Notes: generated from the sequence alone by a model not told the origin. A stretch of 57,900 bases of DNA from Acidobacteriota bacterium (GCA_040005235.1 JBDTZG010000032.1:1-57900), one strand, 5' to 3'; shown: positions 8,484 through 17,064, counted from the first letter of the stretch. Numbers and translations are program-made.

Positions 8484-10804
8484 ATGACCTTCGGCCTCCT
8501 CTTGGCAGTGCTCGCTTCGGTGCCCGCCTCCGGGGCGGCCGTCGACGTTCTCGCTTCACCTGCGTGCGTTCGCTTCGAGATCGCGGCGAAGAGCGGTTTT
8601 TCGTTACCAAAATCCTGGCAGGGAAACGCCCGGCTGCTCAATTCCGAGACTCTCGAGGTATTGAACAAGAAATCGGCTTCAGCCGGCCGGCCGACGGTTC
8701 TCTGCGCCCCTGCAAGCCATCCGGTGGACGTGTCTTTGGAGATCGCAGGGCTCTGGATCCAGCGTCAATCCTTGATCCTGGGAGGCCCGGGAAGTCTGAC
8801 TCCGGTGGTATTGCGCGCATGGCCTCTCGAAAGGTCACCGGCTTGCTCGGCGGGGACGGGAAAGACCGCCCCCGAGCGGTGCGAGTCACCACCCTGCCCG
8901 TGCGCGGTTCACGTCTCGGCGCCGAGCCTCCTCCCGGTCAACTGGACTGTTCGGTGGACCCGAAAGGGCGCTTCGTTTGCGAGCTCCCGGCGGCCACGTA
9001 CGACCTTCATGTTGCACCGATACCGTTCGTTCCAGCCTACCTGGCCGGAGTGCGGGTCGATCCGGCGGGGCGGCTAGATCTCGGAACGATCCCCTTGCGA
9101 CGGGGAGCATCGGTCGCCGGTTGGGTCGCCGTAGAAGGAGCGCGATTCGAGCCCTCTAAGACCCACGTACGTTTGCGGCCCGCAACGATCACTGGCGCTC
9201 CTCCAGATCCGCGGCGAGCGGCCCAGGAAGAAAGCGCCACGTTCGAAGCTGCGACTCGCGCTGACGGCTTTTTCCAGTTTGTCGGCGTCCCGCCGGGCTC
9301 CTGGGAGCTGGAAGCCGAGCAAACGCCGCTCGCTCCGGCCCGAAAATCCGACCTGCGGGTCGAGCCCGAATCGGAGACTGTGGTGCCCGAACCGCTCATT
9401 CTGCGGCCGAAAGAGGCGCTCGCTCTGAGGGTCGAGCCTCCTCTTGACTGGAGCGGGCGACGCTGGAAGGTTTCCGTGAGGCGCCGGGTCGAAGGCACGG
9501 AACGCCTGGAGCCCGAGTCGACGTTCGAAGGTGCCGCGGATGAAGAGGGTGTGGTTCGGATTGCGTCCGCGCCCCCCGGGCGCTTTCTCGTGAGCGTCGA
9601 GGACGCCCGCGGTCAAAACTTCTTCTCCGACCTCCGTTTCGAGCTGACGGCCGGAGACGAGAAACTGATCAGGATTCGGTGGGTGGACGTGAAAGGCCGG
9701 GTACGCTTGGGCGATCAACCGCTCGCCGCTCGGCTCTGGTTCAGCTTCGGCGGACGCAAGATGGCCGGGGAGCCGATCGAGTCCGACGGCGAGGGATTGT
9801 TCAATCTGGTTTTACCTTTCGAGGGTCGTTGGCCGGTCGAGATCGAATCGGCCGAGAGCGGGGTTCGGGCGCAAGTTGAAGCGAACGTCGAAGCGGATCG
9901 GGATCGGCAGGCAAATCTCGATTTGCGTCTGCCGGACACCCGGTTGTTCGGCGGCGTTTCGTTCGACGGCGGTAAGCCCGCTCCAAACGCCATGGTGTTC
10001 ATTTCGGCGAAGGATGGAGGAACGGGTGATTTCCTTGCGACGGCCGATGGCGAGGGCGCGTTTTCGTTTCGCGGGCTTCCGGCCGGCCGATTGGCGATCT
10101 CGGCGGAACTGCGGGAAGACGAGGGCGTCTGGTCTGCCCCGGCGGCGACAATCCCGGTGGCCGATGGCGAGGAAGCCGGCCCGCTACAGCTGGTCCTGCG
10201 TCGCAGGGTGAAACAGACGGGGCGGGTGATGTCGCCACGGGGACCGGTGGCGGGCGCGGTGATCTCCGCCTGGCCGCTTTCTGGCGCCTCTGGGAGCTGG
10301 GCGAAGGCCGGCTCCGACATCGACGGAACGTTTACGTTCGACAGTCCTGTCGGAAGCGGTCCGCTGGTCATCGTTCCACGTGCTCCCGGCTTTGCCCTGC
10401 GCGCTTTTGTTCGCCCTTCCGGAACCGAACCCATAGTGCTCGATCTCTCGCCGGAGGCGGGCAGCCTCGAAGTCGCCCTGCCTTGGATGTCCGATCGCAG
10501 TTCGATGGGATTCGCCCTCGCCTTCTTCGAGGATGGGATCGCAATTCCGTATGGCAATCTACTCGCTCGCTGGGCGATGAGTGAAGGCGTCGAATCGAAG
10601 TCTTCGGCTGAAGGGGGCACCTCGATCCGGGTCCCGGCTCTGGCGCCTGGACGTTGGGACGTTTGCCTACTTGCTTCCCACGACCTGGCCTTCCGCTTCG
10701 CCAATGGCGACGGAGCGCCACAGACCGGCTGCGTCGGCGGAGCTCTTGAAGCGGGCGCCACCCTCCGCCTCGAAGTACCGAAGCCGGCGGCTATTGAACG
10801 CTGA
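8484..10804 (+). pseudogene. secreted carboxypeptidase-regulatory-like (prealbumin-like) repeat protein, frameshifted near 8826-8834
   Basis: Signal peptide lies in frame 8484; the repeats ('TRADGFFQFVGVPPGSWEL', 'ADGEGAFSFRGLPAG') lie in frame 8564; junction '...RAWPL' / 'KVTGLL...'. Confidence 0.65.
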
Positions 10805-10814
10805 GGCGGCGCTC

Positions 10815-11255
10815 CTAATCGTTGGCTTGTTCCGGCTCCGGCCCGACCCGTCGCTCGAACCGCAGGGCCAAGCGCATGATTTCCCGCCGCTGCTCTTCCG
10901 CCCATTCGGATAATCGCCGGTCGGCCGGGTCGAGCGGCGCGCCGCTGCCGAGGTCCACCGGCGGCGGCTCTACGGCTACCTCCTCCACGAAGTCCTGAAG
11001 GTGCCGCAGTTCGCGGCCCACGGCGCGGATCTTCGCCCGGCGGATTGATTCGCCGAGCCGTTTCGGGTCGAGCGGTTGCTCGCCTGCCCCTTTGTACAGC
11101 GCCTCGGCGACGTACTCGACGATCTTCCGGATGTTGGGTACCCACCGGAATCTCAACAAGGCCGTCTCGCGCAACAGCCCGCCTCGTCGCCGCGCCCTAT
11201 CCATCTTGTCCAGTTCCTTCTCGATCGTTTCCTTGATCGGCCCCGGCTTCTTCAC
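10815..11255 (-). CDS. hypothetical helical protein (146 aa)
   Basis: GTG start overlaps the upstream stop (GTGA); purine-rich RBS 'GAGGGTGGAG'; plausible protein composition. Confidence 0.6.
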   Translation of the reverse strand: MKKPGPIKETIEKELDKMDRARRRGGLLRETALLRFRWVPNIRKIVEYVAEALYKGAGEQPLDPKRLGESIRRAKIRAVGRELRHLQDFVEEVAVEPPPVDLGSGAPLDPADRRLSEWAEEQRREIMRLALRFERRVGPEPEQAND

Positions 11256-11725
11256 GACTCCACCCTCAGATCGCACCAAATCTCGTCGCGCAGTGCGCGC
11301 CGGGCACGGCGCCGCATTCGAAGGAGGTGAAGAAGCGGCCCGGGCTCGATTTGACCCCGGCGCAAAATCGCGGCCCAAACGCGCATCGAAAGGAGACCGC
11401 CTTCGGGCAAGGACTCGGCCCCTTCCTTCAGCAGGTTTTCGATCCGGCCGGCGAGCGCGGGGAGCAGCTCGCCGTGATTCAGATAGAGAAGGCTGCGACC
11501 CAGCTCCAATGTCGCCTCGGCGGCGGCGAGCGGGTCGTTGAGGTATTCGTAGGCCCAGGCGGCCCGTTCGAACTGCACGACGGCTTCGGTGAAATCCCCG
11601 ACTTTCGTGGCGGTTTCGCCGCGGTGCATGAGCATCCGGGCGAAGCGGCGGATTCGGGAAGCATCGGGTTCGCCCCGCGAGGCGGAATGCTGCTTACTCG
11701 ACTTGCGGTAGGGGGCGTCGGCCAT
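11252..11725 (-). CDS. stand-alone TPR-like protein resembling the C-terminus of the neighbouring HTH-TPR regulator
   Basis: 'EAVVQFERAAWAYEYLNDPLAAAEATLELGRSLL' aligns by eye with 'DAAGKLELVWRDFADLEIDYDAALAALDLAVVYL'. Confidence 0.6.
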   Translation of the reverse strand: MADAPYRKSSKQHSASRGEPDASRIRRFARMLMHRGETATKVGDFTEAVVQFERAAWAYEYLNDPLAAAEATLELGRSLLYLNHGELLPALAGRIENLLKEGAESLPEGGLLSMRVWAAILRRGQIEPGPLLHLLRMRRRARRALRDEIWCDLRVES

Positions 11726-11954
11726 GCAGGAGAGGTTAACGACGCGAATGGCCGCCAGCGTTTGCAAACTTCCGAAGGTCGCGCCAGACTACCCAAAGGT
11801 CCTTTTTTTCAATCACCGGGCAGATCGATACCGGATCACACAACAAATTACCCGCGGCTCGGTGATTCGAGGGTTCGCTTGTGGTTACTCTTGTTGTCAC
11901 GTTCGAGGGGGCTGTAACACCCTGTTCTATGAAACCCAACCCCCGAGGTTGACC

Positions 11955-13448
11955 ATGGTCGAAACGAAGCAGCCGCCGGTGCCGCCGAACAATGTTGCGC
12001 TCAAGGTCGTTCGCGTCGTGCTCGGCCTGGACCAGGGCGAAGCGGCCGAGTTGATCGGAATCTCGCCCGGCGCGCTCGGCCAGTTGGAGCTGGGCAAGGC
12101 GAAGAAGGCACTGGAGCGCCAAAAGCTCGAACGCTACGTGGCGAGCCTGAAGCCGGCGCCTGGCGCGGTCGAAAGCGCGCTCACCGCGGTGGATTCGATC
12201 CGTCCCGACGCGGAGGTCGAGGCGCTCGGCGCCGACCTACCGCCGGAGGTTCGTGCCGATCTCGAAAAGGCCGCCGCCACCCATCACCGGCAGATGCGGC
12301 GCGAGCTGTTCGAAGGAGCCCGGGAGCTGAAGTTCGACAAGGCGCGGGCGGAGGCCGTCACGGTCTGGGAGATTCTCCGTCCCCTCCAAAGACATCCCGC
12401 CGACCGGCGCCAGGTGATTGAGGAGAGCCCCCGCTTCGCCACCTGGGCGCTGGTCGAAAAGCTGGCCCACGAAAGCGACCGGGCCACCATCCGGGACGTC
12501 GAAGAGGCGCTCGCCCTCGCCGACCTGGACGTGTGGACCGCCGAAAGGCTCCACCCCCCGGCCGATTATCAGGCGGCCTCCCGCGAATATGCCCAGGTGT
12601 ATCTCGGCAACGCCCGCAGGGTGAAAGGTTGGCTCGATCAGGCCGACGCCGCTTTTTTCCGTGCGAAGGAGGTCGCCGCTGTGGGGGAGATCGTGCCTTC
12701 TCCGTTCTCCCGCGCCCGGATGCTCGACCGCGAGGCGAGTCTTCGTCGGGACCAGCGGCGATTCGACGAGGCCCTCGCGCTTCAAGACCAGGCTTTCAAG
12801 ATCGCACAACCCAGCGAGCTGGGCTCGCTCTGGCTCAACCGATCGGTGCTCCTCCATGCCAGCAACGATCCGGTCGGCGCGATCGAGTCGCTCCAGAACG
12901 CGTGTGCGACATTCGATGAGAAAAGTGACCCGCGAGATCGGCTGGTGGCACAGTTCAACCTTGCGGCGAGCCTGATCGATCTGGGGCGAGGCGATGAAGT
13001 TGAGGCCCTGCTGCCGCAGGTTCGCGCCGTCGCCGAGTCTCAGCGGGCTACCGTCGATCTACTCCGGGTGAATTGGCTCGAAGGAAAGTGTGCAGCGGTG
13101 GTGGGGAAGATTGAGGACGCGGCCGGAAAGCTCGAACTGGTCTGGCGCGATTTCGCCGATCTCGAGATCGATTACGACGCCGCGCTCGCGGCGCTCGACC
13201 TCGCAGTGGTCTACCTGTCGGCCGGCCAGCTCGCGGAGACGAAGGCGCTGGCCCTCCGGACCGCGGTGGTCTTTCGCAGGCTCAAGATCGAGCAGAAAGA
13301 GCTGGCGGCGGTGCGCCTGTTCTGGGAGGCCGCCGGCCGAGAGCGGGCGACGGTCGAGCTGGCCCGTCGAGCGCACCGCGCGTTGGTCGCCTTCGGTGCC
13401 TCGCTGGGTAAAGGGGCCATCCCTTTCGTTGGCGGGTTGCGAGGCTGA
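11955..13448 (+). CDS. XRE-family HTH plus TPR-repeat transcriptional regulator
   Basis: 'LGLDQGEAAELIGISPGALGQLELGK' XRE HTH followed by TPR-like helical repeats; ATG at 11955 after GAGG. Confidence 0.8.
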   Translation: MVETKQPPVPPNNVALKVVRVVLGLDQGEAAELIGISPGALGQLELGKAKKALERQKLERYVASLKPAPGAVESALTAVDSIRPDAEVEALGADLPPEVRADLEKAAATHHRQMRRELFEGARELKFDKARAEAVTVWEILRPLQRHPADRRQVIEESPRFATWALVEKLAHESDRATIRDVEEALALADLDVWTAERLHPPADYQAASREYAQVYLGNARRVKGWLDQADAAFFRAKEVAAVGEIVPSPFSRARMLDREASLRRDQRRFDEALALQDQAFKIAQPSELGSLWLNRSVLLHASNDPVGAIESLQNACATFDEKSDPRDRLVAQFNLAASLIDLGRGDEVEALLPQVRAVAESQRATVDLLRVNWLEGKCAAVVGKIEDAAGKLELVWRDFADLEIDYDAALAALDLAVVYLSAGQLAETKALALRTAVVFRRLKIEQKELAAVRLFWEAAGRERATVELARRAHRALVAFGASLGKGAIPFVGGLRG

Positions 13449-13506
13449 TGCAGCCGGCGTCCCGCGCGGGCACCGGCTGTGGACCTGCCTCTTCAGCTTT
13501 CGGTGG

Positions 13507-13827
13507 TCAGTTCGCGCAGCGGCCTACCGGCTCGATTCCGCAACCCTCGTCCCGCGGAGCCGGGGTGCTCGCATCGGCGCAGCGTCCGACTGGATCGACG
13601 ACGCAACCCTGGTCCCGCGGAGCCGGAGCGCTCGAGTTGCTTTCGCGGCACCCGCCGACGGGCTCGAGAATGCACCCCGTGGATGCCCAGAGGTTCGACA
13701 GGAACCCGAGCCAATCGGGCCAGTGCGGGCCGCCGGCCGGTACGGCGAATCCAGCCGTCGGAGCGGTCAGGCCGAGTACGATGACGAAGACCACGGGAAC
13801 GGCGAAACGGCGGAGCGATGGGTTCAT
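13507..13827 (-). CDS. small secreted Cys-repeat peptide precursor
   Basis: AGGAGG RBS; Sec signal 'MNPSLRRFAVPVVFVIVLGLTAPTAGFA'; three GCxx[DE]PVGxC motifs. Confidence 0.75.
   Translation of the reverse strand: MNPSLRRFAVPVVFVIVLGLTAPTAGFAVPAGGPHWPDWLGFLSNLWASTGCILEPVGGCRESNSSAPAPRDQGCVVDPVGRCADASTPAPRDEGCGIEPVGRCAN
13510..13635 (-). repeat. 63-bp intragenic tandem duplication (21-aa unit)
   Basis: GCAACCCT(C/G)GTCCCGCGGAGCCGG occurs at 13540 and 13603. Confidence 0.8.
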
Positions 13828-13917
13828 GCGCTGCCTCCTTGGAGTGTCGGGCCGGCCGGGAGATCCGGCGCCCGGAAACGTAGCGACGGGGGCGCCCGAA
13901 TAGATGGGTGAAAGGCT

Positions 13918-14322
13918 ATGTCACACTACCCGAAAGCGAAGAAACGACCGATAAATACGGAAATCGCGCCGCCGGGCCGCAGCGCGGTCGATGATCCGGC
14001 GGTCTGGGTGCAGTTCGTCCGCGCCTCGCGGGGCTGGAGCCAAGAGGAGCTCGCCGAGGCCGCTAAAATGCATCCGTCCCAGATCTCGGCCTACGAGACG
14101 GGGCTCAAAATCCCCCGCCCGGCCACCCGCGCCCGGCTGGCCGCCGCGGCGGGCACCACCCCGGAAGCGGTGATCGAAGCGGCCGAAGTCTTAAGGCGCC
14201 GGCCGAAGGTCGGGGCGGGCACGTCGATCTCCCGGCGGGCCGCGTCGTTCGCCGAGCAGACCCGCCGGCAGTTCGAGGCGGCGTTGGACCGCGCCGAAGA
14301 GAGTCTCGCGCCCGGCCTGTAG
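13918..14322 (+). CDS. XRE-family HTH protein (stand-alone)
   Basis: 'RASRGWSQEELAEAAKMHPSQISAYETG'. Confidence 0.8.
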   Translation: MSHYPKAKKRPINTEIAPPGRSAVDDPAVWVQFVRASRGWSQEELAEAAKMHPSQISAYETGLKIPRPATRARLAAAAGTTPEAVIEAAEVLRRRPKVGAGTSISRRAASFAEQTRRQFEAALDRAEESLAPGL

Positions 14323-14466
14323 CAGAGGCGGCCCGGGGACAATGCGCCGTGGACCTGCGAGCTGTAGCGATGAGAGGGAGGCGGGGTTCTGCTGGGGTGG
14401 GGGGCAGAAGACTGAAAGGCGCGGCCGGAAGGCTGGCGGGCCGCGCCCCGATTTCGATCGACAAAT

Positions 14467-14847
14467 CTACTCGATGGTCACCTTCGCCTTGTGTTCGGCG
14501 ATCGTCGCGCCTGCCTGCGTGACGACGACCGAATACGTCGCGGTCTTGGTGGCGGGATCGACCGTCGCTTCCACCTTGCACGCCGAATGTTCCGAAATTT
14601 CGGATTCGACTTCCGCTTTGGAGCCCGCGCGGGCCAGAATCTGCGGCGCCGCGATCAGATCGCCGGTCGCCAGATCGCGGACCTGGACCCGAACCGCATA
14701 GGCGCCGGCGGTTTTTTCACTCTTGGTGATCTGGACATCGGTCGAATAGCCGGGGGCGGCGCCGGTGCCCACGGCGGGCCGGGTGACGAGAAACGCCGCG
14801 AACGCGAGTGCGGCAAGGATTCCCAAGGCCAGTTTTTTGCGGGACAT
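14467..14847 (-). CDS. small exported beta-rich hypothetical protein
   Basis: GAGGAG RBS; signal peptide; beta-strand-like mature part. Confidence 0.65.
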   Translation of the reverse strand: MSRKKLALGILAALAFAAFLVTRPAVGTGAAPGYSTDVQITKSEKTAGAYAVRVQVRDLATGDLIAAPQILARAGSKAEVESEISEHSACKVEATVDPATKTATYSVVVTQAGATIAEHKAKVTIE

Positions 14848-15155
14848 TAGGTTCTCTCCTCTCGGTGTACCTTCCGGGTACCTTTGGGTCGATGGGATCA
14901 GGGAGGCCGTTGCTTCCTTAAGTTAGGTTGCCGCTGAGAGGCCAAACGAGACAATTTTTGCATCTGGAAAGCCCCGAGGGGCAAGTCGGGCGGCTTTCGG
15001 AGCGCCGATTGCAAAATAAGGAGTGGCGTCGGGCGGCAAGGACCAGCGCTAGCTGACCGCCTCGGAGGCTAGATCCGGTGCGAGTTTGCGAGGTCGCCGG
15101 GTTGCGTATGGCCGGCGTCACGGGGGCGTCCCCCGTCCTCCAATCCGCCTCCCGT

Positions 15156-15184
15156 TTGACAGTCCGGCCCCTCGCCTCTAGGAT
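15156..15184 (+). promoter_or_regulatory. sigma70-type promoter for spoVG-tRNA-prs
   Basis: TTGACA (15156-15161), 17-nt spacer, TAGGAT (15179-15184). Confidence 0.7.
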
Positions 15185-15413
15185 TGCGGGCCGCGGAATG
15201 GGGGGAGACCCTCGCCTCGCCTCCAAGATTGTTTTCGATCAACCCCACCGGACCAAGCGGCTCCGTGCGGGGTGTTTGTGTCGCCGCGATAAGCGGTGCC
15301 TCGGGGAAACCCGAGATTCTTTCGTCCCGGTCGCCGTTGCGGTTCGAGGCCTTCGGGGTTCGAAATGGCTCGGACGTGCGTGCGGCGAATCGTCTGGACG
15401 ATGGAGAGGATCC

Positions 15414-15947
15414 ATGGAGATCACGGAGGTCAAGGTCTTTCCCATTCATGAAGAGAAGCTGAGGGCCTTCGTTTCGATCGTCTTCGATCACTGCTTCATG
15501 GTCAACGACATCAAGGTCATCCAGGGGCGGGACGGCTTGTTCATCAGCATGCCGAGCCGCAAGAAGAAGAATGGGGAATTCAAAGACATCGCGCACCCGC
15601 TGAACAACGAGGCGCGGCGCACGATCGAGGATCGAATTCTGGCCGCGTTCGGCCAGACCGCCGATCCGAGCCGCTCGGGCGCTGCCGAGGTCCATCCTTC
15701 GATGGGTTTGGCGAGCAGTCCCTCGATGGGCTCCAACGGCTCCTCGATGGGAGTCATGGCGGCCATGGGGGCGGTGGGGTCGAACGGCCTGGGCGGGTCG
15801 GACGGACAGGAGCGGCGGGCGGAAACGCCGCCGAGCCTTCTCGAACCGCGCGGATCGGGCGCACCGGTCGCCGCGGCGTCGGAGCCGAAGACGCTCGAAG
15901 AGCTTGAAGAGCTACACTTGAGCGACTCGTTCTGGAGCGTCACGTAA
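15414..15947 (+). CDS. spoVG: SpoVG family nucleic-acid-binding protein with C-terminal extension
   Basis: 'MEITEVKVF', 'DIKVIQGRDGLFISMPSRK', 'FKDIAHPLN'; GAGAGG RBS. Confidence 0.93.
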   Translation: MEITEVKVFPIHEEKLRAFVSIVFDHCFMVNDIKVIQGRDGLFISMPSRKKKNGEFKDIAHPLNNEARRTIEDRILAAFGQTADPSRSGAAEVHPSMGLASSPSMGSNGSSMGVMAAMGAVGSNGLGGSDGQERRAETPPSLLEPRGSGAPVAAASEPKTLEELEELHLSDSFWSVT

Positions 15948-16004
15948 GCGGGAGCGGGGTAAAAGGAGTGCCGGCAGGATCGGCAACAGACGGCGAAGCA
16001 ACCT

Positions 16005-16079
16005 TGGGGCGTCGCCAAGCGGTAAGGCACCAGACTTTGGCTCTGGCATACGGAGGTTCGAATCCTCCCGCCCCAACCA
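16005..16079 (+). tRNA. tRNA-Gln(TTG)
   Basis: Acceptor stem TGGGGCG/CGCCCCA; anticodon arm CCAGA-CTTTGGC-TCTGG; T loop GGTTCGAATCC; encoded CCA. Confidence 0.97.
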
Positions 16080-16122
16080 AATTCGTCGGCGAGTCCCCAC
16101 GCCAAAAGGAGCGAGGTCGTAC

Positions 16123-17064
16123 ATGGCAGGAGAGCTGAAGATTTTCGGGGGGCGCGCCCACCCGGCACTGGTGCAGGAGATCTGCGAATACCTCCATCTC
16201 GAAGCGGGGCACGTCAAAGCCCTGAACTTCTCGGATGGCGAGATCTTCTGTCAGGTCACCGAGAACGTGCGCGGCTCGGACGTCTTCGTGGTCCAGCCCA
16301 CCTGCGAGCCGGTCAACGAGAACCTGATGGAGCTGTTGATCCTGCTCGACACGTTCAAGCGCTCGTCCGCCTCGCGGGTGACGGCGGTGATCCCCTATTA
16401 CGGCTACGCCCGCCAGGACAAGAAAGACCAACCGCGTGTGCCGATCACCGCCAAGCTGGTGGCCGATCTGATCTCCCGCGCGGGCGCCGACCGGGTGCTC
16501 ACCCTCGACCTTCATGCCGATCAGATCCAGGGCTTTTTCGACGTGCCGGTCGACCACCTGTTCGCGGCCCCCGTGCTGCTCGAAGCGATGAAGGCGTTCC
16601 CCGTGCCCGACCTGGTGATCGTCTCGCCGGACGCGGGCGGGGTGGAACGCGCCCGGGCGATCGCCAAGCGCCTCGGTGTCGGCCTCGCGATCGTCGACAA
16701 GCGGCGCACCGCGCCGAACGAGGCGGAGGTCATGCACGTCATCGGCGACGTCGAAGGGAAAAACGCCCTGATCGTCGACGACATCATCGATACCGCGGGG
16801 ACACTCACCAAGACCGTCGAAGCGCTGAAAAAGAAGGGTGCCGAGCGCATCCTCGCCGCCGGGGTTCACGGCGTGCTCTCCGGCCCGGCGCTCGACCGGA
16901 TCAACGCATCCCCGCTCGAATCGGTACTGATCACGAATACCATCCCGGTGGAAGCCAAGCTCGCCCGATCGGCGAAGCTGCGCACGCTGTCGGTCGCCCC
17001 GCTGCTTGGCGAGGCGATCCGCCGGATTCACGAAAACAGCTCCGTAAGCTCGCTGTTCGTCTGA
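16123..17064 (+). CDS. prs: ribose-phosphate pyrophosphokinase
   Basis: 'FSDGE', 'PYYGYARQD', 'SPDAGG', 'VDDIIDTAGT'. Confidence 0.98.
   Translation: MAGELKIFGGRAHPALVQEICEYLHLEAGHVKALNFSDGEIFCQVTENVRGSDVFVVQPTCEPVNENLMELLILLDTFKRSSASRVTAVIPYYGYARQDKKDQPRVPITAKLVADLISRAGADRVLTLDLHADQIQGFFDVPVDHLFAAPVLLEAMKAFPVPDLVIVSPDAGGVERARAIAKRLGVGLAIVDKRRTAPNEAEVMHVIGDVEGKNALIVDDIIDTAGTLTKTVEALKKKGAERILAAGVHGVLSGPALDRINASPLESVLITNTIPVEAKLARSAKLRTLSVAPLLGEAIRRIHENSSVSSLFV

Follow-up and report, generated by a model that had tools for sequence, protein, structure and literature searches.

A multi-copy cassette of HTH–TPR regulators and a secreted multi-core peptide precursor in an Acidobacteriota genome

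Does a Gram-negative bacterium sense a secreted peptide with a cytoplasmic receptor of the kind known from Gram-positive bacteria? The question is raised by a locus within a 57,900-nucleotide stretch of DNA from an Acidobacteriota bacterium (hereafter, the window). An initial annotation, made from the sequence alone, proposed an HTH–TPR receptor, a secreted peptide precursor with repeated cysteine cores, and separate HTH-only and TPR-only partners, and read them as a circuit analogous to RRNPP systems. In the passages cited here, RRNPP(A) is described as a family belonging to Bacillota and to the mobile elements of that phylum (PMC12700828, PMC9765709, PMC10075063, PMC11343458). In its arrangement, the cassette resembles peptide quorum sensing, which to date has been reported from Gram-positive bacteria alone. 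Our analysis supports the proposed circuit in part, and the observation is larger than first reported: this soil Acidobacteriota genome holds about 15 paralogous copies of a small, self-contained, putative peptide-signalling cassette.

Gene content, linkage, and duplication of the cassette

All five genes proposed for the locus were recovered at their original positions (Table 1). The regulator REC1 converges on the precursor gene PEP, from which a stand-alone XRE-HTH gene diverges; on the other side of REC1, a small TPR-like gene reads away from it and is followed by a fifth gene, whose GTG start (11255–11253) overlaps the TGA stop of the small gene (11254–11252) as GTGA, with GGAG just upstream, in keeping with the proposed translational coupling.

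Table 1. Features of the cassette in the window.
Feature	Coordinates	Strand	Description
Coupled gene	10815–11255	-	146 aa, soluble, charged
Small TPR-like gene	11252–11725	-	157 aa, paralogue of the receptor C-terminal repeats
Small gene/REC1 spacer	11726–11954	.	229 bp, divergent
REC1	11955–13448	+	497 aa, cytoplasmic XRE-HTH + TPR regulator
REC1/PEP spacer	13449–13506	.	58 bp, convergent, G+C-rich hairpin (read directly)
PEP	13507–13827	-	106-aa precursor
PEP core 3	13516–13545	-	GCGIEPVGRC
PEP core 2	13579–13608	-	GCVVDPVGRC
PEP core 1	13648–13677	-	GCILEPVGGC
PEP/REC2 spacer	13828–13917	.	90 bp, divergent
REC2 short form	13918–14322	+	134 aa, XRE-HTH + one following helix, no TPR domain

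The host genome spans 6.2 Mb at 66% G+C. In this genome, each of the 22 peptide-family genes has a receptor-family gene within 2.3 kb, whereas 2000 rounds of random placement gave 1.15 co-locations on average and 6 at most; 15 of the 22 ORFs are convergent with a receptor gene at a distance of ≤150 bp (random mean, 0.42). Conversely, a peptide gene flanks each of the 20 full-length or near-full-length HTH–TPR matches, namely 15 REC1 (counting a partial copy on C107) and five full-length REC2, and no other recurring target genes were found near these members. Similarly, at the best peptide matches in 15 other genomes, a receptor-family ORF lies within 1.5 kb at 20/20 loci; REC1 is convergent at 17 of them, a divergent REC2 being present as well at 14 of these. 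The enrichment of peptide homologues beside HTH–TPR genes, which had been put forward as a test of the circuit, is therefore massive, and the architecture first described, an HTH–TPR regulator beside a short secreted multi-core peptide gene, is supported.

In the general layout, REC1 and PEP converge, PEP and REC2 diverge, and a small C-terminal-TPR paralogue usually lies upstream of REC1. REC2 is present in all 15 cassettes but full-length in only five. A phylogenetic tree splits 14 REC1 copies from 13 REC2 copies on a single branch (support 96/97), and the sister pairs of one group mirror those of the other, pointing to two anciently separated receptor lineages that were duplicated together, the whole unit diverging as one. 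Six further TPR paralogues in this genome lack an HTH, carry another N-terminal domain, and lie co-directionally, no more than 700 bp from a peptide-family gene; the same holds for 3/3 loci of a sister family (f4). Thus, the peptide gene goes with the TPR domain rather than with the HTH.

The block 10819–14335 is syntenic with one other genome at 89.4% identity. Measured against this orthologous cassette, the five genes have dN/dS ratios between 0.19 and 0.41 (coupled gene, 0.19; PEP, 0.24, its gap lengths being multiples of three; small gene, 0.26; REC2 short form, 0.41) and are under purifying selection. The cassette genes almost certainly form one functional module.

Receptors, precursor, and intergenic spacers

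REC1 consists of an HTH (residues ~11–64), a long linker helix (97–144), and about eight TPR-like hairpins (148–483), with no predicted membrane segment as judged by eye. Paralogues align from residue 1–12 onward, and an identical 497-aa protein has already been called in a public collection. At E ≤ 0.1, Pfam returned only HTH_3, TPR_12, and Pex26, with HTH_3 and TPR_12 under their gathering cut-offs (19.4 bits vs 23 and 19.3 vs 30.1, respectively); the domains could be assigned because the family profile and the predicted structure secure both. Positions 6–83 of the receptor-family profile match ClgR (1.2e-7), HipB (4.3e-7), and the 434 repressor, and homologues carry PF01381 and PF13560.

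The modeled C-terminal region is a TPR-type solenoid of the peptide-binding kind expected of RRNPP(A) receptors (5–9 repeats). It matches the solenoids of LGN, Rap, and NprR equally well and, since the fold match to Rap and NprR is no better than that to the eukaryotic LGN, it indicates a type of peptide-binding solenoid rather than kinship. No Rap, NprR, PlcR, AimR, Rgg, or PrgX chain is found among the best 60 of 183 PDB profile matches. The initial annotation's likeness to PlcR, NprR, and AimR holds for fold and gene layout but not at the sequence level, as judged by Pfam and these best 60 of 183 matches. Residues that are invariant (N219, R222, R265, R371, W374) or nearly invariant (E260, S262, R264) in the receptor family sit in helices 203–224, 253–266, and 366–382 of the predicted structure. 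TPR A helices line the groove, and from the Pfam TPR_12 register we infer that these three are A helices. In this respect, the receptor resembles a peptide-binding protein.

The HTH-only gene had been regarded as an accessory partner. Its product exceeds the Pfam cut-offs for HTH_31 (E 2.4e-11) and HTH_3 (E 3.4e-11), aligns to positions 11–102 of the receptor profile, and clusters with 12 other REC2 copies, away from the 14 REC1 copies, on the 96/97 branch, all of which identifies it by sequence as a truncated REC2 rather than an accessory. The ortholog retains the short form, as does the closest paralogue (C127). With the TPR domain missing from REC2 in this copy, at most REC1 can sense a peptide here. 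A type II toxin–antitoxin module with an XRE antitoxin (HipB, MqsA, HigA) was also considered and rejected: the partner gene encodes a signal-peptide protein, NCBIfam HipB- and MqsA-type models reach 15–21 bits against cut-offs of 62–72, and Pfam, NCBIfam, and PADLOC searches found no toxin family.

The description of the single-domain partners as paralogues stands for the small TPR-like gene as well. A profile of 10 small-gene paralogues aligns to receptor residues 377–464 (hhalign probability 80.6%, E 1.3e-5), while the single sequence gives a weak match to the receptor (probability 4.4%). Copies found by tblastn adjoin REC1 in 12 further cassettes, with two more matches elsewhere (C95 and C8:120363–120809), and an identical protein is present in the public collection. 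The coupled gene has no Pfam, NCBIfam, PADLOC, or PHROGs match; full-length paralogues lie beside three other cassettes (C18, C107, C118), and a fragment is found on C111.

As originally noted, PEP encodes a signal peptide and three cysteine cores. AAGGAGG lies 6 nt upstream of its ATG, and Shine–Dalgarno sites precede the peptide paralogues too. Read from an alignment of 10 paralogues, the precursor comprises a predicted signal peptide (residues ~1–28, likely cleaved between GFA and V), a Trp-rich helical leader (36–47), and Cys-bracketed cores at residues 52–60, 75–83, and 96–104 separated by Pro/Ala-rich linkers. Each core is a 9-residue loop, C-x-[ILV]-[DE]-P-x-G-x-C; in the DNA, cores 2 and 3 make up a tandem repeat of 63 nt (13514–13571/13577–13634, 83% identical). 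In the single orthologous pair, the core region gives no sign of positive selection (dN/dS 0.19).

The PEP family, for which there is no Pfam or NCBIfam model, numbers 1269 cluster representatives among 1.84 billion proteins. Among 148 short representatives, 144 have Cys-bracketed cores and 139 a signal-like N-terminus; cores occur 2–5 in tandem, most often three (87/148) or four (28/148), and only loop positions 2, 6, and 8 vary. The best-conserved part outside the signal is the leader, L..LW..L..LW, with W at position −5 in 113 aligned representatives and at position −12 in 73. A structure model (pLDDT 60.9) contains only helices 3–21 and 36–47, the latter being the sole confidently helical segment of mature PEP, and no compact fold. 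Long relatives of 731–783 aa (P0167, P0193) contain Cys-less xIDPNG[RK] repeats, ten or more of them. Overall, PEP looks like a pro-peptide.

The two short spacers are more conserved between the orthologs than the cassette genes (96.6–96.7% vs 84–93%) and hence are constrained. The REC1/PEP spacer, 96.6% identical and thereby exceeding every coding region, holds a hairpin in which CAGCCGG (13451–13457) pairs with CCGGCTG (13473–13479); it is probably a bidirectional terminator, missed by a terminator scan because it has no T run. The PEP/REC2 spacer is 96.7% identical, and all three differences fall within a degenerate palindrome, CCCGAATAGATGGG (13895–13908), a candidate operator that reads CCCGATTAAACGGG in the ortholog. 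The perfect palindrome CCCGTTTAAACGGG occurs only twice in the 6.2 Mb, both times in PEP–REC2 spacers of paralogous cassettes (C76, C107). In a longest-palindrome test against shuffles, just 3/15 PEP–REC2 spacers reached P ≤ 0.05, so the operator idea is statistically weak. The small gene/REC1 spacer presumably holds the promoters of both genes. Together with the small-gene 5′ end (11641–11954), it shares 86.7% identity with the ortholog, and blocks in 11750–11954 are almost unchanged; neither a sigma-70 consensus site nor an Rfam family was found in the spacer.

Candidate roles of the secreted peptide

Whether a PEP-derived peptide is the ligand of the neighboring TPR domains is, in our judgment, evenly balanced. 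In such a scheme, Sec would export PEP and the signal peptide would be removed; periplasmic disulfide formation would close the three 9-residue loops, which would then be cut apart at the Pro/Ala-rich linkers, build up outside the cell, re-enter, and become reduced inside. The loops would dock in the concave TPR groove of REC1, and of REC2 if full-length, where the family-invariant Asn, Arg, Glu, and Trp on inner A helices seem fit to grip the invariant Asp-Pro-x-Gly. Once bound, they would switch the regulators at operators, one in each divergent spacer, so that PEP as well as the regulator genes would come under feedback control. The TPR-less REC2 of this copy may act as a peptide-blind competitor at the operator, and the small TPR fragment could cap or titrate REC1 via its C-terminal repeats. 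The many divergent copies per genome would serve as many private channels, like Rap–Phr in Bacillus.

The cell could supply the other steps, as Omp85, DsbA-like (two matches), and OppA-type (one binding protein) proteins are encoded in the genome. Several observations weigh against signalling: the nine-residue loops would have to cross both the outer and the inner membrane, a single OppA-type protein would have to serve 15 or more cassettes, and adjacency and co-duplication are equally expected if the peptide is just a regulated product. The lack of a sequence match to RRNPP receptors in Pfam and among the best 60 of 183 PDB profile matches, the missing sign of positive selection on the cores, the weak palindrome statistics, and the TPR-less REC2 of this copy count on the same side. 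We know of no precedent among RRNPP systems for a disulfide-closed pheromone sensed in the reducing cytoplasm.

A rather unlikely but substantial alternative is that PEP is not a signal but a regulated product, a small peptide that is secreted or periplasmic. It might be a matrix component, bind metals or surfaces, or act as an antimicrobial or in competition, and the HTH–TPR regulators would control its transcription upon another cue sensed by the TPR domain, for example a partner protein such as the small TPR paralogue. The divergent PEP/REC2 arrangement with its conserved spacer resembles that of a regulator and its target, and both the variable loop positions on a rigid scaffold and the patchy presence of the cassette among congeners also fit diversifying extracellular interactions. 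The Cys-less repeats of P0167 and P0193 suggest that the repeat can be a structural or binding element by itself. Comparing neighbor genes among cassettes, we found no recurring protease, exporter, or importer, and the lack of import or processing genes fits a product better than a signal; but immunity, export, and modification genes do not recur either, which counts against this alternative. Moreover, the peptide gene stays beside the TPR domain even where the HTH has been replaced, which is easier to explain by a direct peptide–TPR link, the 20 HTH–TPR members counted above, full-length or nearly so, are all dedicated to a peptide gene with no other recurring targets nearby, and the PEP model shows no folded domain.

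It is improbable that the TPR domain instead binds unexported precursor, for example through the Trp-rich leader or the unfolded cores; the regulators would then gauge the load on export or the state of the envelope, and not population density. In favor of this reading, the precursor is synthesized in the very compartment that holds the receptors, so that no re-import is needed and the main difficulty of quorum sensing in a diderm disappears; the conservation of the leader and its helical prediction point the same way. However, this leaves unexplained the 2–5 tandem cores with variable positions and the 15 or more divergent copies per genome, and no chaperone or Sec-related gene was found within the cassettes.

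Finally, although long overlapping opposite-strand ORFs (13090–13911 and 13448–13903) are usual at this G+C content and a crude G+C-third-position gene picker preferred an overlapping ORF to the PEP frame, the chance that PEP is a spurious frame in a coincidental neighborhood is negligible, being refuted by the family size, the Shine–Dalgarno sites, the dN/dS ratio and in-frame gaps, the co-location with receptor genes, and the same ORF being called in public records.

Distribution and comparison with known systems

The peptide family is present in 26/41 relatives' genomes, 14/301 genomes of a class sample, and 3/401 of a phylum sample, all within the class. In the same genus, one of seven other genomes has the cassette at 89%; the rest stand at 72% or less. 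The attribution to a Gram-negative lineage holds: the host lineage is diderm, given the Thermoanaerobaculia/Acidobacteriota names of homologues on related records and four Omp85 matches in the genome.

In RRNPP(A) systems, extracellular maturation turns the propeptide into a short, unmodified linear oligopeptide, which an oligopeptide permease brings back into the cell. Like the RRNPP(A) systems of Bacillota (Rap–Phr, NprR–NprX, PlcR–PapR, AimR–AimP, Rgg–SHP, PrgX), the cassette combines a cytoplasmic receptor of N-terminal XRE-HTH and C-terminal TPR domains (the HTH being absent in Rap) with a small neighboring Sec-type propeptide gene, and occurs in many divergent copies per genome, patchily among close relatives. 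Tandem candidate pheromones in the propeptide are another shared feature, multi-pheromone propeptides being described for Rap, NprR, PlcR, and AimR systems in the passages cited (PMC9765709, PMC11343458). Unlike RRNPP(A), the cassette resides in a diderm Acidobacteriota with Omp85, had no tblastn match in plasmid and phage collections, and has no sequence match to RRNPP families (Pfam at E ≤ 0.1; best 60 of 183 PDB profile matches). It also has receptors of two lineages flanking a single peptide gene, REC1 in convergent and REC2 in divergent orientation, adds truncated HTH-only and C-terminal TPR-only paralogues, and encodes Cys-bracketed 9-residue loops with an invariant D-P-x-G in place of short linear tails.

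Other likenesses are more limited. LGN/Pins is a eukaryotic polarity protein with no DNA-binding domain, and its TPR domain resembles that of the receptor in repeat geometry only, at 14% identity. In filamentous cyanobacteria, which are diderm, PatS/HetN–HetR is a ribosomal peptide signal acting on a cytoplasmic DNA-binding protein; HetR is not an HTH–TPR protein, PatS lacks a Sec signal and tandem Cys loops, and the system is not a multi-copy cassette.

Tentatively, a diderm counterpart of RRNPP quorum sensing may operate in one Acidobacteriota family, as an independent invention or as the family's long-sought outgroup: 15 or more private channels per cell, a propeptide yielding several disulfide-stabilized DPxG loops, two anciently diverged flanking HTH–TPR receptors, and the same peptide-sensing TPR module also coupled to another, non-HTH output domain. 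REC1 and REC2 may have an analogy in Rgg2/Rgg3–SHP of streptococci, where short peptide genes diverge from a receptor gene and two paralogous receptors respond, in that system one as activator and one as repressor. Rgg has a shorter repeat domain, and SHPs are short, single-core, linear hydrophobic peptides.

Composition and linkage of the cassette

The window holds one of about 15 paralogous copies of a gene cassette, in which REC1, encoding an HTH-TPR regulator, converges on PEP, encoding a secreted-type peptide precursor, and PEP is divergent from REC2, a member of a second receptor lineage. A small gene usually lies upstream of REC1 and, in the window, is followed by a coupled gene; the GTG start of the latter and the stop codon of the former share the sequence GTGA, preceded by GGAG. 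PEP has a Shine-Dalgarno sequence (AAGGAGG) 6 nt before its ATG, and similar sites precede its paralogues.

Genes and spacers of the window cassette and their identity to the orthologous cassette
Feature	Position	Strand	Basis	Identity to ortholog
Coupled gene	10815-11255	-	ORF reading	92.1%
Small gene, 157 aa	11252-11725	-	ORF reading	90.8%
REC1, 497 aa	11955-13448	+	ORF reading	88.6%
REC1-PEP spacer				96.6%
PEP, 106 aa	13507-13827	-	ORF reading	84.1%
PEP-REC2 spacer				96.7%
REC2 short form, 134-aa HTH gene	13918-14322	+	ORF reading	92.6%

The 497-, 106-, 134- and 157-aa proteins all have identical entries in public protein collections. HTH_31 and HTH_3 exceed the Pfam cut-offs in the 134-aa protein, the HTH_3 and TPR_12 scores of REC1 fall under them, and no Pfam or NCBIfam family was found for PEP, the small gene, or the coupled gene. 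PADLOC and PHROGs gave nothing beyond generic HTH matches, REC1 had no match in plasmid and phage collections, and the closest ESM Atlas clusters, at scores of 0.90 or less, consist of unnamed Acidobacteriota ‘hypothetical proteins’. The small-gene profile aligns with receptor residues 377–464 (hhalign probability 80.6%, E 1.3e-5); as a single sequence, the small gene reaches a probability of only 4.4%.

The initial annotation had proposed that an HTH-TPR receptor and a secreted multi-core peptide form a module resembling RRNPP(A), the peptide quorum-sensing receptors of Bacillota (Rap, NprR, PlcR, AimR, Rgg, PrgX), and the predicted co-localisation of the two genes was borne out across the 6.2-Mb genome. 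Using hmmsearch on all six-frame ORFs, we recorded 22 peptide-family and 76 receptor-family matches. Every peptide match lies within 2.3 kb of a receptor match (22/22), 21 within 700 bp, and 15 within 150 bp and convergent; in 2000 random placements, the mean counts at 2.3 kb, 700 bp, and 150 bp were 1.15, 0.63, and 0.42, and the highest counts 6, 4, and 4, respectively. By position, the receptor matches divide into 15 convergent (REC1), 18 divergent (REC2 pieces), 6 co-directional, and 37 located elsewhere. All full-length or near-full-length HTH-TPR matches adjoin a peptide gene, namely 15 REC1 (one, on contig C107, being partial) and 5 full-length REC2, and the 37 ‘orphans’ are HTH-less TPR proteins or generic HTH matches. 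REC2 is present in 15/15 cassettes, as a full-length gene in five, of medium length in six, and short or fragmentary in four (window copy included). By tblastn, small-gene copies adjoin REC1 in 12 further cassettes, and the coupled gene has full-length copies by three other cassettes and one fragment elsewhere. No transporter, protease, or modification gene recurs in the cassettes. It is nearly certain that the cassette genes make up a single functional module.

Among relatives, the peptide profile matched 26/41 genomes, counting the one that the window comes from: 22/24 in its family, where a single genome can have as many as 37 matches, and 3/16 in the other families of the order. Wider sampling gave 14/301 genomes for the class and 3/401 for the phylum, all three inside the class, in searches that scored few candidates per genome and may miss weak copies. 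Homologue records are named Thermoanaerobaculia, Acidobacteriota, or Acidobacteria bacterium. In 15 other genomes, 20/20 loci around the best peptide matches have a receptor-family ORF no more than 1.5 kb away; REC1 is convergent in 17 of these, 14 of which also have a divergent REC2, and in three loci of family f4 a co-directional HTH-less TPR protein stands in place of the convergent REC1. In the nearly closed genome G009, by our reading, the eight full-length receptor matches listed all flank a peptide match, and at least six of seven peptide matches have a receptor neighbour among those listed, with 127 receptor matches beyond them. At loci L046 (genome G013) and L049 (genome G022), receptor genes beside peptide genes are split over two or three frames, being either decaying copies or assembly errors.

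A single-protein locus search found one orthologous cassette, in one other genome, syntenic over 10819-14335 at 89.4%, a span almost equal to the 10815-14322 of the initial annotation; no convincing terminal repeats marking a mobile element were found around it. Of the seven further genomes in the genus, a single one carries the cassette at 89% and the rest reach ≤72%; individual cassettes therefore turn over quickly. Between the orthologs, dN/dS is 0.19 for the coupled gene, 0.26 for the small gene, 0.25 for REC1, 0.24 for PEP (0.19 for its core region alone), and 0.41 for REC2.

The peptide and receptor families

The N-terminus of PEP is positively charged and leads into a hydrophobic stretch, followed by a leader with spaced Trp and Leu and by three loops, GCILEPVGGC, GCVVDPVGRC, and GCGIEPVGRC, separated by Pro/Ala-rich linkers; loops 2 and 3 form a 63-nt tandem repeat at the DNA level. 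A profile of ten paralogues, searched against 1.84 billion proteins, retrieved 1269 cluster representatives at E≤0.001, of which 396 remain at E≤1e-10. Of the 150 best matches, 148 are no longer than 200 aa, and these were used for loop statistics. A signal-like N-terminus is found in 139/148 and at least one C-x2-[DEN]-[PSGT]-x-G-x-C loop in 144/148, with exactly three loops in 87 and four in 28. Loop positions 2, 6, and 8 vary, and G-C, [IL]3, D4, P5, G7, and C9 are almost invariant; in 84 of the 144 loop-bearing representatives, exactly two residues follow the last Cys. A few relatives retain the DPxG motif and lack the Cys pair. An AlphaFold2 model of PEP (75 sequences; mean pLDDT 60.9) contains only a signal helix and a leader helix, and its core region has no compact fold, which fits a string of independent loops without proving it.

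The V,V,V at position 6 in the window copy raised the possibility that this position is a cassette-specific determinant, which we rejected since position 2 is stronger: in 139 precursors, within-precursor identity is 0.30 versus 0.19 shuffled at position 6, and 0.50 versus 0.10 at position 2. The core repeat also exists outside small precursors, as two long secreted-looking metagenome proteins (P0167, 731 aa; P0193, 783 aa) each match the core section of the peptide profile ten times or more, across extended arrays of x[IL]DP[ND]G[RK] repeats that mostly lack Cys.

The receptor model, computed from a 40-sequence family alignment (pLDDT 90.7), comprises an HTH at about residues 11–64, a long helix (97–144), and 16 helices that pair, as far as residue 483, into about eight TPR-like hairpins. 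The N-terminus of the family profile matches the XRE proteins ClgR, HipB, and 434 repressor, and positions 206–360 match consensus TPR proteins; no RRNPP receptor is among the best 60 of 183 PDB profile matches. Residues N219, R222, R265, R371, and W374 are invariant in the family and E260, S262, and R264 nearly so, and by the TPR_12 register all sit in ‘A’ helices, which line the concave groove in TPR proteins. These conserved residues may thus mark a putative ligand site.

REC1 and REC2 were labelled by gene position, and position predicts clade: in a maximum-likelihood tree of the HTH region (27 rows), one branch with support 96/97 separates 14 REC1 from 13 REC2. Sister pairs are mirrored in the two halves (C85/C127, C79/C8a, C18/C118, C10/C8b, and C59a/C111, named by contig), and the cassette therefore goes back to an ancient pairing of REC1 with REC2 and has been duplicated as a whole. 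The 134-aa gene, which the initial annotation took for a separate HTH-only partner, is indeed present, but tree and profile identify it as REC2 minus the TPR domain. This short form is common to the window copy, its paralogue C127, and the ortholog, and, being under purifying selection as well, is not a fresh pseudogene.

Possible roles of the peptide

The four RRNPP(A) papers that we consulted (PMC10075063, PMC9765709, PMC12700828, PMC11343458) treat peptide quorum sensing through cytoplasmic HTH-TPR receptors as belonging to Bacillota and the mobile elements of these bacteria, and one of them suggests looking for remote structural homologues in order to root the family and infer its ancestral state (PMC12700828). 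Our literature search returned no paper joining RRNPP with Acidobacteriota; candidate lists in the supplements of the RRNPP(A) papers might include non-Bacillota matches. Publications that mention Thermoanaerobaculia together with quorum sensing are surveys, judging from title and abstract.

We favour a peptide-signalling loop of the RRNPP type, a reading to which we give about an even chance. It is suggested by a cytoplasmic receptor with a peptide-binding-type solenoid and conserved polar residues on the inner helices, by a PEP built like an exported multi-core propeptide, by a peptide gene that stays with the TPR domain also at loci where another domain takes the place of the HTH, and by a cassette copy number and turnover resembling those of Rap-Phr. 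The main rival, that PEP is merely a regulated secreted product, appears distinctly less probable, if still a serious contender. A predicted complex of REC1 95–497 with peptide 34–106 scored 0.00 in a run without control pairs and is informative neither for nor against binding. The genome encodes four Omp85-family, two DsbA-like thioredoxin, and one OppA-type binding protein match, and thus has an outer membrane, possible periplasmic disulfides, and possible oligopeptide import, none of it cassette-specific. Sensing of the unexported precursor inside the cell would avoid the re-import problem, and we consider it improbable.

The cassette defines a large unannotated receptor-propeptide family, with hundreds of natural variants in a fixed gene layout, in a soil phylum that is abundant, largely uncultured, and equipped with an outer membrane. 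Should the peptide prove to be the ligand, this type of peptide-based cell–cell signalling would reach into the diderms, where the passage of such peptides through two membranes would call for an explanation; it would also bring a new pheromone chemistry of tandem disulfide loops with an invariant Asp-Pro-x-Gly, and a natural set of orthogonal peptide–regulator pairs. Otherwise, the cassette would still stand as a module without an explanation, strongly conserved, highly amplified, and a visible part of the regulatory repertoire of these genomes.

Spacers, flanks, and HTH-less paralogues

The REC1-PEP spacer contains a G+C-rich hairpin, read directly from the sequence, that is plausibly a two-way terminator; a terminator consensus scan gave 2 sites versus 3.4 expected, and a consensus scan for sigma-70-like promoters gave none. 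In the PEP-REC2 spacer, all three differences from the ortholog fall within a 14-bp element at 13895-13908, which reads CCCGAATAGATGGG in the window and CCCGATTAAACGGG in the ortholog. The genome has two copies of the perfect palindromic form, CCCGTTTAAACGGG, one in the PEP-REC2 spacer of C76 and one in that of C107; copies with two mismatches lie in the C127 PEP-REC2 spacer and, in C76, between the small gene and REC1. Other cassettes have different A/T-centred palindromes at the same place. Since only 3/15 PEP-REC2 spacers pass a longest-palindrome test at P≤0.05, the palindrome at 13895-13908 is a candidate operator as a lead only. A 16-nt inverted repeat (13850-13865/14226-14241, 94% complementary) has one arm in this spacer and the other in the 3' part of REC2.

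The left flank of the window cassette is unrelated to the ortholog locus; directly left, at 8564-10804, lies a gene whose 746-aa product contains three CarboxypepD_reg domains (E 9e-26). On the right, 14336-15149 is absent from the ortholog locus (246 bp there versus 814) and holds a 126-aa ORF (14467-14847, minus strand) that has a signal-like N-terminus, matches no known family, and lacks paralogues elsewhere in the genome. The adjoining 15150-16445 is kept in the ortholog at 91.9% identity. Rfam detected only a tRNA-Gln (anticodon TTG; 16005-16079), 1.7 kb right of the cassette, beyond which lie ORFs that, by eye, resemble PRPP synthetase, ribosomal protein L25, and peptidyl-tRNA hydrolase. 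The sole OppA/SBP_bac_5 match of the genome (contig C8, 64502-65602) is about 3.7 kb from the C8b cassette (REC1 57982-59451, PEP 59556-59861), which may be coincidence.

The genome also encodes 23 HTH-less receptor-family TPR proteins, on contigs C24, C103, C81, C20, C104, C126, C42, C63, and others (e.g., loci L063-L066). In six ORFs read fully, an alternative N-terminal domain of ~100 aa carries an H-x4-C-x2-C motif; this domain is unrecognised by Pfam or PDB sequence search, the PDB search with one such domain reaching a best E of 0.49. Six of the 23 are co-directional with a peptide-family gene within 700 bp, some of these peptides lacking the Cys pair. The idea that they are zinc anti-sigma factors is retained as a side remark at most: in 4/4 tested, Pfam gives TPR families only. 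Sigma-70 region 2 genes adjoin these paralogues on contig C103 only, where three ECF-like genes (at 11850, 13858, and 14971, within 11850-16838) are interleaved with HTH-less TPR paralogues at 12569-13663 and 15456-16799 and a peptide-like gene at 14491-14778, which hints that some TPR paralogues may act on sigma factors.
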